Shown piece after piece: positions 36,401-39,400 of a stretch of DNA of 64,000 nucleotides (within the stretch, counting starts at the first letter, position 1; each line of letters opens with the position of its first letter). This stretch comes from Leptonemataceae bacterium. GTDB taxonomy: Bacteria > Spirochaetota > Leptospiria > Leptospirales > Leptonemataceae. Where the stretch lies: positions 4,512,001-4,576,000 of the forward strand of contig OZ245742.1 of NCBI GenBank assembly GCA_965227295.1. The letters are read 5' to 3'. Made by a program: the position numbers.

Positions 36401-39400
36401 CTCTCGCTTTTCAGGCGAGCGCTCATGACCACACCTGCTCCCCGACGTTCGTCTTGTTCTTCTTAAAGTCACTTTCGCTCATATTTACTCCTTAGTGCGA
36501 AATGTGGGTCCGGTGGGATTCGAACCCACGGCCATCCGATTAAAAGTCGGATGCTCTACCCCCGAGCTCCGGACCCGCTATTCTCTAAATGTCTTCTTGT
36601 CATCTTCGCTCTTCATGGCGTATCTCCTGTTGCTTATGATGTGCACCGCAAGAGACTCGAACTCTTCCCTGCTGCATGGCACACAGCTATGCTTGCCACT
36701 AACACCAGCGATGCGTTTAAACGAAAAAACCCTCCAGGGAGTCGGCCGGGGAGGGTTCTTCATGAATGCGTTTGCAGATTCTTCTCAGCAACGCATGCGC
36801 AGAACTCCTCCGGCGATCCGGCCGTCCTTATGGCCCGCATCGATCCGCATCCCGATAAATCGGGCGGTTCTCACAACCGTTGCTGTTACTGTTAAGCTCA
36901 TGATAGAATACTCAGACGAATCCCTTGTTAAATTTCTTATAAAAATATCTTTGCCGACGCAGGGAATCGAAACCTGATTACCGCAGTGAAAGTGCGAGGT
37001 CCTTGCCTTTAGACGACGCCGGCGATTTGAGTTGAAACGTAGTTAGGTCCACGTTCCCGTTCTCGCGGCATCGCTCCAGCTGACACGTATGTACGTCCTG
37101 CGCGGTTCATTATACTATGAGACATGGGTGGGATTCGAACCCACGTAAACGGCTTTGCAGACCGCCCGCTGGCCTCTCGCGCACCATGTCGGGTTTACTC
37201 TGGCTTGCGGCGGTCGGTAACATCGTTCTCTGTCTTCCATATCTCCCTCATAACACTTGAAAAATAAGCAAAATGCCCATAAACGAAAAAAGGCGAGCCG
37301 TTGATCCGGGCTCGCCTTTCGCATCCAGCAGGTTACACTGAATCTAAGACGAGCGCATGACTCCCTGAAACACATCACGCTCACAACCCGCATGAATCAT
37401 GCCGGCCTTCGCGAGGTCTCGTTCCGTTCTATGTTGGCGCTTCGGCGACATTCCGTTTCCTGAATACTTACTTGGTATTCGACGTCAACAACTTCATAAA
37501 GATTTAAATATTTTTTTCATGGAACTCAATGTTCCGGGAGATGGATTCGAACCATCAACCCCCGACTTCAAAGGCCGGTGTTCTACCCGTTGAACTACCC
37601 CGGAATGAGTTGCACCGGAGGCAGGACTCGAACCTGCATAGAACGCATTAACATTGCGTCGCCTTACCATTAGGCTACTCCGGTATTCTGGCAGAGGGAA
37701 CAGGATTCGAACCTGTGAACATCGGATTTGGAGTCCGACAGCTTGGACCGCTCGACTCATCCCTCTATGTCGGCGTGGTGGGACTTGAACCCACGACCCC
37801 CGGTTCCCGAAACCGGTGCTCTACACCCTGAGCTATACGCCGGATAATAAAAAACCCCCTCAAGCTTCCGCCGGAGGGGGTTCTCGCGCAAACGCGCTGT
37901 TGCTCAGAGCACTACACGACCACCTCCAGGCAGATGCCGGGATTCTGTTGGGGCCAGTTGCTCTGTGGGAAAAACATGCTCATCACGTTTACCTGAAGTT
38001 AAGAGACGACGGTTTTCGAGAAATCCTTAACGAAAATATATTTTTTGGAACGAAAGCTTCGCTTTGCCTCGTCTCATCTACCGTATCATGAACGGTATGT
38101 TACTATCATCGCTGTATCTTCTCAGCTCCGGCGGCATGCGGGAGGCGGCGATGTAGTACGCGCAGACAGTTTTCTGTCTTCGAGAAGCCCCTCCCGGTGA
38201 ACCCGCGAGGGGCTTTTTGTTTTTAAACGCGCTGCTTTCCTCCTGCCGGTCTGTAAAGCCGGGGTCGTTAAACGAGGAGGTCGGGAGACGAGAGGTTCAA
38301 ATCCTCGGCAGCGCATACTGGATAGATGCCCGAGTGGTAAGGGACCCGTTTCGAAAACGGAGGTCGGCGGTTCGTCGCGTGGGTTCGATTCCTACTCTAT
38401 CCGCATTACGGAGGGATGACCGAGTGGTAAGGTATCCGGTTGGAAGCCGGTGGTCATCGATGAGATGCGAAGGTTCGATTCCTTCTCCCTCCGAGAAATG
38501 GAACAGTGGCCGAGAGGTAAGGCAGCGGTCCGCTAAACCGTGGTCGTCGTAACAGACGCGGAGGTTCGATTCCTCCCTGTTCCGCAGCGAGCGATAGCCC
38601 AATCAGGCAGAGGCAGTCGACTTAAAATCGGCAGAGTGCGGGTTCGATTCCCGCTCGCTCAAAACGCATCCGTAGCCCAACGGTAGAGGCACCAGGTCGA
38701 GAGCCTGGTCAGTGCAGGTTCGAATCCGGCCGGATGCACACGGGGACGTAGCCCAACGGCAGAGGCAGCACGCTCAGAACGTGTCCAGTGTGAGTTCGAA
38801 TCTCGCCGCCCCCATAGAGTCTCCACTGAAGAGATTTGCGACCTCGTGCATCGACATTTACTAGAGTAACATTTCGTGATGTTAGCATGTCTCCGGGCTT
38901 TTGTCAGCAAAAAATTAACTTTCCTTGAGTTTAAACTTGCAGTATGCCGCCGTGTGTTTAGCCTTCCCCCGGAGGAATCTATCACATGGAAACAATTCAG
39001 AAAATCATCGTCAGTCACGAAGGCATGGAAGCGCTCAAGCAGTGCGAGTCCATCCGCGTGGAGCACGAAGAATACCCGCTGCTCGTCATCGAGTTTCTGG
39101 GAGAGGGTCCAACCGCTCGCCCCGCCCTGGGCGTTTCGCAGTTCATCAAGCAAGCAAACGGCCGCTGGCTGTGCGCTCGCGAAATGCAGTTCGAAATCAC
39201 GGCGGACAATGAGTGGTTTCCGTTTCTGCTCGCCAGTGAAACTACCGGTGAATTCAAAGAGGTCTACACCCCGGTGAAGGTACCGCAGCCGTCCCGGCTG
39301 AATTCCCTCTTAAAAGTAAATCGAGAAGTGTTTCTCGAACTTCAACAGGTCGCTTGCGAGTGGGACCAGGAACTCCGCCGCGCGTGTTACCTGGGAGCGC

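Follow-up and report, generated by a model that had tools for sequence, protein, structure and literature searches.

A conserved D-armless gene resembling tRNA-Tyr(GUA), the putative tyrosine member of a Leptonemataceae tRNA array

The gene and its surroundings

The DNA analysed here, called the window throughout, is a stretch of 64,000 nucleotides from the genome of a Leptonemataceae bacterium (GCA_965227295.1, contig OZ245742.1), and all coordinates count from its first base. ARAGORN predicts 42 tRNAs in the window. One cluster, array 1 (Table 1), holds 26 of the genes it recognizes, for 19 amino acids, with Tyr alone missing. The survey's finding was that an 87-nt gene overlooked in this array is its sole Tyr gene and completes the set of 20 amino acids; no other Tyr gene is present among the 26. 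Elsewhere in the genome there are 45 further tRNA genes, including one standard housekeeping tRNA-Tyr, and the window gene is consequently not needed for basic growth. The island around array 1 contains a recombinase, a group II intron, and transposase fragments. Array 1 has the 20 or more tRNA genes, at two or more per kb, by which the available part of PMC4758250 defines a tRNA array unit, and it resembles the horizontally transferred arrays of PMC4758250 and PMC8421152 in being dense and supernumerary to the housekeeping set (an L-array). In the available parts of these two reports, the array members are treated as standard tRNAs, and mention is made of neither a D-armless member nor control by a leader peptide. 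Long horizontally acquired arrays have been reported to be mostly silent (PMC8421152, available part).

The gene is preceded by a short leader ORF and a terminator-like hairpin, and is followed on the same arm by three Ser and three Leu tRNA genes. Leader A had been said to contain a Tyr codon, and it has one, among Leu and Ser codons; so does its counterpart in a relative, G001, which reads MNGKLLSSLSLYGSSNMREVAM*. The array region of G001 has no other Tyr gene. Folding of 38150-38228 yields -33.6 kcal/mol (z -4.6). A strict terminator scan of 37800-38900 reported none, as the internal loops of the hairpins exceed its limit, but the folds show hairpins.

Table 1. Features of the D-armless gene and of the DNA around it (window coordinates).
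Feature	Position	Strand	Details and evidence
Array 1	35528-38814		26 ARAGORN genes plus the window gene (27), 3.3 kb; ARAGORN
Leader A ORF, MNGMLLSSLYLLSSGGMREAAM*	38088..38156	+	ten consecutive codons Leu, Ser or Tyr
Terminator-like hairpin and U run	38181..38225	+	directly upstream of the gene; fold
Whole gene, non-cloverleaf tRNA-Tyr(GUA) (putative)	38229..38315	+	87 nt; R1 89 bits, R2 86.3 bits
Acceptor stem, 5' strand	38229..38236	+	8 nt, partner 38307-38314; 8/8 pairs formed here
UU linker, acceptor stem to helix H	38237-38238	+	
Helix H, 5' strand	38239..38244	+	gene positions 11-16, partner 38275-38280; drawn in MFE fold
Anticodon arm	38246..38262	+	5-bp stem, loop CUGUAAA; covariation, fold
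Anticodon GUA	38253-38255	+	
Helix P3, 5' strand GUC	38264..38266	+	partner GAC 38287-38289; pairing across helix H makes a pseudoknot
A-rich single strand	38267..38274	+	from P3 5' strand to H 3' strand
Helix H, 3' strand, G-rich	38275..38280	+	gene positions 47-52; alignment, covariation
Linker, H to P3	38281..38286	+	contains GG (family consensus UGG)
Helix P3, 3' strand GAC	38287..38289	+	then GA at 38290-38291
T arm	38292..38306	+	4-bp stem, loop UUCAAAU; alignment, covariation
Acceptor stem, 3' strand, and discriminator	38307..38315	+	8 nt, then discriminator A at 38315
Six tRNA genes downstream	38320..38814	+	three Ser and three Leu; ARAGORN
Second copy, array 2, broken	44307..44443	-	R1 55.4 bits

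Folding reproduced the architecture first described for the gene, namely an acceptor stem, an anticodon arm with GUA, a T arm, no D-arm, and a helix (H) between a C-rich and a G-rich strand. It also amended that description: the acceptor stem has 8 pairs, the T stem has 4, and there is a further 3-bp helix, P3. All five helices form in standard pairs in the window gene (acceptor 8, H 5-6, anticodon stem 5, P3 3, T 4 bp). Only 10 nt separate the acceptor stem from the anticodon stem, so there is no D-arm. A 7/5 reading of the acceptor and T stems was rejected, as the base preceding the 4-bp T stem is unpaired and the eighth acceptor pair covaries. Two predicted hairpins were likewise set aside. 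The first, a small one in the A-rich strand (gene positions 38-46), had already been flagged as unsupported; it is broken in G001 and is not conserved. The second, a 3-bp MFE hairpin at gene positions 53-63, is specific to this genome and incompatible with P3. In all members of the family described below, the A-rich strand is 6-10 nt long and has no conserved pairing. The TGG of the linker after helix H is kept at 90% or more (consensus of 27 distinct sequences, alignment A6), and this GG or UGG may be a stand-in for the G18 G19 of a D-loop. The window gene and the housekeeping tRNA-Tyr of the same genome have identical anticodon loops, with U33, A37, and the 7-nt length all kept. CCA is not encoded in the window gene.

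As had been reported, standard finders miss this gene. ARAGORN makes no call at 38229-38315, and Rfam at gathering score has no match there; a lax threshold brings up tRNA-Sec as the top match, whose 21.6 bits fall well short of the cut-off of 47. Other family members do not reach the cut-off of the tRNA model RF00005 either: at gathering score it matched none of them in 16 loci, and the copy in a Pseudomonas phage came to 26.3 bits, against a cut-off of 29.

Spread and covariation of the family

The original description knew of only two intact homologues, and this proved wrong. More than 100 distinct sequences of a D-armless 8/4 family were fetched from phage contigs, metagenomes, Planctomycetota genomes, and one cultured Pseudomonas phage. 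Members are 86-90 nt long and share one plan: an 8-bp acceptor stem, a 4-bp T stem, no D-arm, helix H enclosing the anticodon arm, and a crossing P3. Pattern scans and model searches located this plan in two Planctomycetaceae genomes and, in viral sequences, at 17 loci, of which 14 are distinct. In metagenomes, 78 of the 80 loci fetched, from at least 120 matches, carry it. Among further genomes, members also occur in 6 of 150 from Planctomycetota and in 11 of 150 from Planctomycetaceae. The cultured representative is Pseudomonas phage Rembedalsseter (PQ464593.1, 45 kb), which infects Pseudomonas trivialis and in which the family member, on the minus strand at 44632-44716, is the only tRNA-like gene; it was the only hit when two other members were compared with cultured phages by BLAST, and the same search with one viral member returned nothing. 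Several searches were empty or narrow. BLAST of the window gene found nothing among plasmids and, among 60 relatives, only G001 and a second genome, G002. A viral scan with a TTAAAC-anchored pattern gave 0 matches, and 150 other Spirochaetota genomes searched with model R1 yielded no member.

Two models of the family, R1 and R2, were used to ask how well the window gene fits it. R2 was built from 82 metagenome matches, without sequences of this genome, and its match to the window gene (E 1.8e-21) ends exactly at the gene's two ends; no standard tRNA in the window exceeds 25.4 bits with it. With R1, the gene lies within the normal range of the family, in which members score 74-99 bits versus at most 26.5 bits for standard tRNAs. 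The match to the family model is far beyond chance. Most members were found by patterns that fix the Tyr loop, the GAC, or the T loop, and the invariance of those motifs is therefore partly built in.

All five helices covary across the family. In alignment A4, 96.1% of cells are paired and the covariation score is 0.852. Shuffling brings the score to 0.228, with none of 500 shuffles attaining the observed value, and sliding the partners leaves it at 0.185 or below. Alignment A5, with 74 distinct metagenome members, has 98.2% standard pairs, and 20 of its 22 pairs are changed on both sides; this removes the earlier worry that the covariation rested on few changes. Changes on both sides are seen across the family in all eight acceptor pairs, the eighth included, and all five pairs of the anticodon stem covary, as do all five modelled pairs of helix H (99.4% of cells paired). 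For P3, 97.6% of cells are paired, with three alternative pair types. These alignments were made with models and lean towards the modelled helices, not towards P3: R1 does not include P3, and the alignment is thus not fitted to it. P3 is invariant in the pattern-anchored members; in those found by the model alone, its middle pair is UA in 22, CG in 4, and GC in 1, and its third pair is CG in 27 and AU in 1. An initial MAFFT alignment (A2) had the 3' strand of H out of register, so that RNAalifold drew P3 and not H, and it was replaced.

Between this genome (G000) and G001, 11 of the 87 positions of the gene differ. Four compensatory pairs account for 8 of these differences; the acceptor stem and the anticodon stem have one such pair each and helix H has two, in line with the compensatory changes first noted for these elements.

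Not every copy is intact. The interruption after the anticodon loop described for array 2 and for G002 was confirmed. In array 2, 58 other bases have taken the place of gene positions 30-37, which comprise the anticodon stem's 3' strand along with part of P3; in G002, 29 other bases have replaced the 3' strand of the anticodon stem. Related DNA from wastewater and marine-sediment metagenomes includes one intact variant, one that carries an insertion of 70 bases ahead of the T stem, and one with 47 other bases where the gene would be; the broken gene lies on a marine-sediment contig, and the replaced one on a wastewater contig. From these cases, together with array 2 and G002, it follows that the gene can be lost. 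The broken copies, and the rejection of the gene by standard finders, are what could suggest a decayed tRNA-Tyr pseudogene that lost its D-arm and is drifting, as the survey had allowed, but we find this hardly credible given that the same architecture recurs with compensatory changes in five helices in more than 100 distinct sequences that come from several phyla and from phages, that most differences between G000 and G001 are compensatory, and that the window gene scores like any other member.

Tyrosine identity and relation to known tRNAs

Nearly all members combine the anticodon GUA with A73; GCA with U73, or UCU, is rare. By script count, A73 is found in 81 of 83 distinct GUA members, and one further member that the script left unclassified (L042, loop CUGUAAC) also has GUA with A73. 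All three distinct GCA members have U73, and U73 with GCA is the identity set of CysRS according to the available part of PMC5389517. The window gene follows the rule, with an A at 38315 to go with its GUA. In scans that did not fix the anticodon, GUA was present in 9 of 9 distinct members and, in a second set, in 15 of 17. Of 87 distinct full-length members, 34 (about 40%) have an encoded CCA following the discriminator.

The members lie within tRNA clusters. Other tRNA genes are present in 90 of 97 family loci, and 775 of these 778 genes are co-oriented with the family member. An ARAGORN tRNA-Tyr occurs elsewhere in the locus in only 7 of the 97, directly adjacent in 5, which means that the family does not always replace the standard gene. 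A tyrosine identity is supported by A73 with GUA, by the scarcity of standard tRNA-Tyr in the same clusters, and by the Tyr codon in both leaders. The reading of the window gene as conserved, D-armless, and like tRNA-Tyr(GUA), and as apparently filling the Tyr slot of the array, is supported as well, by these observations along with the covariation and the model scores.

The window gene shares the loop CUGUAAA, G1-C72, A73, the T loop, and a similar length with standard bacterial class II tRNA-Tyr (RF00005). The 7/5 branch, D-arm, and long variable arm of that class are all missing from the window gene, which also has no cloverleaf and does not score above the RF00005 cut-off. The most similar described class is that of the phage (8/4) tRNAs and allo-tRNAs of Mukai et al. 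(PMC5389517). In the available part of that report, the 8/4 acceptor/T branch is the hallmark of the phage class, and the likeness extends from the 12-bp branch built as 8+4 rather than 7+5 to the occurrence in phage tRNA clusters and metagenomes and to being overlooked by routine annotation. However, those 8/4 tRNAs have a D stem-loop with a long stem and a tetraloop, as well as a long variable arm, and are mostly of Ser type; the allo-tRNAs likewise keep the D stem-loop and the long variable arm (PMC7609411 and PMC5389517, available parts). The new family has no D-arm, has H with the crossing P3, and is of Tyr type (rarely Cys or UCU). Of the features by which the available part of PMC5389517 delimits its class, the window gene shows the 8/4 or 9/3 branch and lacks the Sec-like D stem-loop and long variable arm; the region after its anticodon arm forms the 3' strand of H and P3 instead of a hairpin. 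Nor does tRNA-Sec (RF01852) fit, despite being the top Rfam match, as the score is far below the cut-off, the anticodon is GUA and not UCA, the 6-bp D stem of tRNA-Sec is missing, and the branch is 12 bp long rather than 13. We therefore think it very unlikely that the gene belongs to a non-standard class already described, be it tRNA-Sec, allo-tRNA, or phage (8/4) tRNA-Ser or tRNA-His.

Absence of the D-arm is shared with animal mitochondrial tRNAs such as tRNA-Ser(AGY)/(UCU), which are charged and used in translation (PMC7609411, available part); a D-arm is thus not strictly needed for translation. The mitochondrial molecules are described there as shrunken and floppy, with a short connector in place of the arm, and as working with adapted organelle factors. 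In contrast, members of the new family are full-length, have two conserved helices in place of the arm, and occur in bacteria and phages with standard factors. A literature search among openly available papers found no D-armless bacterial or phage tRNA-Tyr.

Proposed function and implications

We consider it likely that the window gene is a functional elongator tRNA-Tyr(GUA) with a non-cloverleaf fold, from a widespread family of phages and mobile elements. By sequence comparison, the 8-bp acceptor stem stacked on the 4-bp T stem gives the usual 12-bp branch. Helix H would stack on the anticodon stem at the place of the D stem, and the A-rich strand would run back along H. The conserved UGG after H would contact the T loop, as G18 G19 do in standard tRNA. 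RNase P would cut the array transcript at G1, and 3' trimming and CCA addition would follow; the host TyrRS would charge the product through A73 and GUA, and UAY codons would be decoded. The gene would then be the Tyr member of a horizontally acquired array of 27 genes, in an arm for Tyr, Ser, and Leu that lies behind a leader peptide and a terminator. A ribosome that stalls for lack of charged Tyr, Ser, or Leu tRNAs may allow more transcription into this arm. As for the reason behind the fold, our guess is an escape from host nucleases or factors that recognize the standard tRNA-Tyr body; nucleases directed at tRNA-Tyr include the PtuAB effector of a retron system and colicin E5.

The main competing explanation is a tRNA look-alike that is not used in decoding, such as a decoy that draws off a host nuclease or sensor targeting tRNA-Tyr, or an RNA with a regulatory role in the array; the anticodon arm and acceptor end would then be kept only so that this partner can recognize them. 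No tRNA known to function on bacterial ribosomes has a core like this one, a standard tRNA-Tyr shares some of the family loci, and being the sole tRNA-like gene of Rembedalsseter suits a special task better than codon supply. However, the discriminator switches together with the anticodon, as synthetases read them, the 12-bp branch that EF-Tu binds is maintained as 8+4, CCA is encoded in 34 of 87 members, and the gene occupies the one empty amino-acid slot of array 1. On balance, we judge a look-alike to be unlikely. A decoy could still be charged, and the two readings overlap to that extent.

Beyond the functional tRNA-Tyr that we favor, a broader reading can be put forward tentatively, and we regard it as possible rather than probable. 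The gene would be a translationally active tRNA in which a pseudoknot core of H and P3 takes the place of the D-arm, and its family would be the first class of non-cloverleaf elongators outside organelles. Compared with the standard order, the block made of a D-stem strand and a GG loop would have been swapped to a place after the anticodon arm. The body would serve phages and mobile arrays chiefly for Tyr, and now and then for Cys and UCU, since it would escape the notice of host defences or factors tuned to the standard tRNA body, and here it would be switched on by a leader that senses the supply of Leu, Ser, and Tyr.

If the RNA is charged and decodes, then bacterial RNase P, the CCA enzyme, TyrRS, EF-Tu, and the ribosome would all tolerate a pseudoknotted body that has no D-arm. 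For annotation, phage and array tRNA sets that seem to be without Tyr probably do have it, because ARAGORN and Rfam miss the gene. This body carries at least three anticodons in nature and could be a new chassis for tRNA engineering. For phage–host conflict, the family offers a testable lead in one cultured Pseudomonas phage whose only tRNA-like gene belongs to it.

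A D-armless tyrosine tRNA-like gene in a divergent array

The plus arm of array 1 opens with an 87-nt tRNA-Tyr(GUA)-like gene that starts four bases past a terminator-like hairpin and U run. Its acceptor stem pairs perfectly and is followed by discriminator A, with no encoded CCA. The 5-bp anticodon stem carries the loop CUGUAAA, the same as that of the housekeeping tRNA-Tyr of this genome (G000), and the T loop reads UUCAAAU. Only 10 bases lie between the acceptor and anticodon stems, leaving no room for a D-arm. ARAGORN predicts 42 genes across the window, none of them at this position, and Rfam reports no match here at gathering score; at a lax threshold, the top match is tRNA-Sec, with 21.6 bits against a cut-off of 47. 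Of the 20 amino acids, 19 are represented among the ARAGORN genes of array 1; tyrosine is the absent one. Elsewhere in the genome there are 45 tRNA genes, among them a standard tRNA-Tyr of 82 nt.

A BLAST search among 60 relatives placed the locus in two same-genus genomes only, G001 and G002. Of 87 positions, 11 differ between the G000 and G001 genes. Eight of these amount to compensatory changes at four pairs (5-82 in the acceptor stem, 22-30 in the anticodon stem, 13-50 and 14-49 in the extra helix), and the remaining three all fall in unpaired stretches. The G002 copy equals that of G001, except that six bases 3' of the anticodon loop are replaced by 29; at the same spot in the array 2 copy, eight bases are replaced by 58. 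Among near relatives, covariation support therefore comes from one pair of sequences. The survey's finding was right in its facts on the gene (fold, finder misses, Tyr gap, compensatory changes, and interrupted copies), but its count of only two intact homologues gave way to the many yielded by pattern and model searches.

Coordinates of the features discussed (window positions unless a locus or record is named)
Feature	Position	Strand	Remark
D-armless tRNA-Tyr(GUA)-like gene	38229-38315	+	87 nt
Array 1	35528-38814		divergent; 26 ARAGORN genes, 20 on minus, 3 Ser and 3 Leu on plus
Array 2	43959-47530		inverted, damaged copy of array 1
Leader A	38088-38156	+	5' of Tyr, Ser, and Leu genes
Leader B	37912-37983	-	5' of Pro, Trp, Asn, Gln, Cys, Glu, Gly, and other genes
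Hairpin, minus arm	~37850-37886	-
Hairpin, plus arm	~38181-38219	+
Array Leu tRNAs (three)	38588-38814	+	73-75 nt
Group II intron	41457-43304	-	between the arrays
Reverse transcriptase/maturase frame	41457-42770		within intron
Intron domains D1-D4	43063-43304
DUF6908 frame	34893-35366	-	flanks array 1
DUF6908 frame	38986-39459	+	flanks array 1, inverted
GCA/U73 member	L071 709-794
GCA/U73 member	L072 825-910
GCA/U73 member	L109 810-895
GCA/U73 member	L111 913-998
GCA/U73 member	L339 1202-1287
Rembedalsseter member	L176 513-597 = 44632-44716 of PQ464593.1	-
RNase P RNA	L017 3175-3477	-	bacterial class A, 178 bits
tmRNA gene	L029 2341-2742	-

The family and its fold

A search pattern derived from the conserved central part and the T loop matched two further genes in species-representative genomes, both in Planctomycetaceae MAGs and both within tRNA clusters. 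A looser pattern (Tyr loop, gap, GACGR, T loop) gave 17 loci in IMG/VR, 14 of them distinct and many on contigs of 100-460 kb, and at least 120 loci in JGI metagenomes, 80 of which formed our metagenome analysis set. All members, each parsed singly, share a plan of 86-90 nt. From the 5' end, this runs through an 8-nt acceptor strand, UU, the 5' strand of an extra helix, H (5-6 nt), 1-2 nt, the anticodon arm, 1 nt, and GUC; it continues with 6-10 A-rich nt, the 3' strand of H, a short GG-bearing linker, GAC, GR, a 4-bp T stem with loop UUCRAWU, an 8-nt acceptor strand, and the discriminator.

A covariance model built from 18 members (R1) scores intact members at 74-99 bits, two interrupted copies at 55-64, and standard tRNAs at no more than 26.5. 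It recovers members from 78 of the 80 loci in the metagenome set, together with four second copies unmatched by the pattern. The score from a model built from metagenome matches alone (R2) is a membership test independent of G000. R2 gives the window's gene 86.3 bits, with ends exactly at those of the gene, while the top standard tRNA of the window reaches 25.4 bits.

The two main alignments were made using the model and are biased toward its helices: in one of 20 sequences (A4), 96.1% of cells are standard pairs and the covariation score is 0.852, versus 0.228 when shuffled (0 of 500 reach 0.852) and at most 0.185 with partners slid, and among 74 distinct metagenome sequences (from 80 of the at least 120 loci), 98.2% of cells are paired and 20 of 22 pairs have changed on both sides. 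The survey had drawn a 7+5 acceptor/T branch; because acceptor pair 8 covaries (GC 57, UG 10, AU 5), the branch is instead 8+4. Its pairing of a C-rich with a G-rich pentamer corresponds to H, which is the helix with the best support (99.4% paired; five of five modelled pairs covary). No pattern-anchored member departs from the triplets GUC and GAC, which RNAalifold pairs. In Planctomycetota genomes, members found only by the model have GGC/GCC, GCC/GGC, and GCA/UGC at these triplets. A further alignment (A6) was not fitted to this 3-bp helix, P3, since P3 is absent from R1; there, the middle pair is UA in 22 cases, CG in 4, and GC in 1, and the third is CG in 27 and AU in 1. Judged by the model-only Planctomycetota members, P3 is a real helix. 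In gene numbering, P3 pairs 36-38 with 59-61 and H pairs 11-16 with 47-52; the two cross, so the core is a pseudoknot. Covariation thereby establishes five helices of the proposed fold and, with the family models, confirms the D-armless gene that the survey had observed.

By its sequence, the gene counts as an intact representative of a large and conserved class of non-cloverleaf tRNAs, and this class is apparently undescribed so far. No Rfam 15 family reaches its cut-off at any of 16 member loci, and an ARAGORN call overlaps a member in 1 of 97 loci. In the main texts of openly available papers, our searches found no description of a D-armless 8/4 family with H and P3. Closest among published classes are the 8/4 tRNAs of Mukai et al.; in the sections describing them, these retain the D-arm and a long variable arm (PMC5389517). 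Passages of a 2020 review of non-canonical tRNAs (PMC7609411) list D-armless tRNAs for mitochondria only.

Probable tyrosine identity and genomic setting

Several independent signs favour a probable tRNA for tyrosine. The bacterial TyrRS identity set consists of A73 and the anticodon. A viral scan with the anticodon left unfixed gave 21 loci, 11 of them with the family plan (nine distinct), all GUA. Three more scans, also with the anticodon unfixed, gave 150 loci and 17 distinct sequences past the filter, of which 15 have GUA and A73. The other two, on viral contigs L299 and L303, have the loop CUUCUAA and an encoded CCA; their anticodon, UCU, is an Arg anticodon in the standard code. Members with GCA (Cys), loop CUGCAAA, and U73 comprise the four model-found extra metagenome copies and one from a Planctomycetaceae genome; U73 and GCA are given as the CysRS identity set in the relevant part of PMC5389517. 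This Cys-type body adjoins the Tyr form in the same contigs. Across distinct full-length sequences, the discriminator is A73 in 81 of the 83 with GUA (C in the other two) and U73 in all 3 with GCA. The GUA/A73 pairing and the Tyr gap of array 1 support the survey's reading of a conserved tRNA-Tyr(GUA)-like gene. Of the 87 distinct members, 34 encode CCA immediately 3' of the discriminator.

Other tRNA genes accompany the member in 90 of 97 loci, within 300 nt in 75 of these. The neighbours lie on the member's strand in 775 of 778 cases, with Leu (167) and Ser (73) the most frequent types. A separate tRNA-Tyr is called by ARAGORN in only 7 of the 97 loci. However, in five of those seven a standard tRNA-Tyr stands directly beside the member (e.g., L022 and L026), and several lineages have lost the gene or carry it broken, both of which count against its being a Tyr adaptor. 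The upstream leader frames of G000 and G001 hold a run of Leu and Ser codons with a single Tyr codon; the genes downstream are of these same three types. For the window's gene, a function in translation is likely.

At the start of both arms of array 1, a strong terminator-like hairpin comes after a short open frame, and the codons of each frame (leader A, LLSSLYLLSS; leader B, MSMFFPQSNWPQQNPGICLEVVV*) agree with the tRNAs of its own arm. The layout looks like amino-acid-type attenuation on a tRNA operon; the term "attenuat" is absent from PMC8421152. The three array Leu tRNAs have a 5-nt variable loop and, given their length, are class-I-like; the housekeeping Leu tRNAs of G000 measure 83-85 nt. 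Short Leu tRNAs (74-78 nt) also stand beside family members in phage clusters (L017, L018, L024, L025, and L028).

Distribution and proposed working

With R1, no member was found in a sample of 150 other Spirochaetota genomes; samples of other Planctomycetota and other Planctomycetaceae genomes gave 6 of 150 and 11 of 150, respectively. The family is common in phage and metagenome contigs. Such a patchy spread is as expected for mobile DNA. The island that holds the arrays also has a recombinase gene beside a tRNA-Ser gene, proteins of unknown function, a duplicated DUF6908 gene, a group II intron, and transposase fragments. The duplicated array may end at the group II intron, and the two DUF6908 frames have identical Pfam E-values and scores. 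Array 2 has about ten insertions of 39-99 nt within tRNA genes. A 51-nt hairpin-rich element occupies an identical T-loop site (between GGTT and CGA) in three genes, Arg(CCG), Val, and Gly(UCC). For Cys and Trp, whose alignment is poorer at this point, copies sit within the T-arm region or next to it, and the element recurs at seven more genome sites inside a larger repeat. Other hairpin inserts lie 5' of the T stem in Ile, Lys, and Gln. On a 177-kb viral contig, an RNase P RNA lies about 100 nt from the D-armless tRNA-Tyr gene, and on another viral contig a tmRNA gene lies near a member.

In the folded molecule, H would follow the acceptor stem after a 2-base linker, just as U8 and N9 precede the D stem, and because it runs straight into the anticodon stem, it could stack there in the D stem's place. 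A conserved UGG 3' of the second H strand could contact the T loop in the manner of G18 G19. P3 would tie together two strands, one exiting the anticodon arm and one entering the T stem, and the A-rich strand would have to return along H. The segment order could thus be seen as a block swap of the standard one, with the block of D-stem strand plus GG loop now 3' of the anticodon arm. The 12-bp acceptor/T branch, described in passages of PMC5389517 as recognised by EF-Tu, is kept whole; with it intact, normal end-processing, CCA addition, TyrRS charging, and UAY reading would be expected.

A cultured phage, Pseudomonas phage Rembedalsseter, carries a member scoring 83.8 bits upstream of its small terminase gene, where the record shows an unannotated gap, and this is the only tRNA-like hit in the entire 45-kb record. 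Such a lone member suggests a specific need for a Tyr adaptor. Such a need might arise, for example, where a host defence removes the standard Tyr adaptor.
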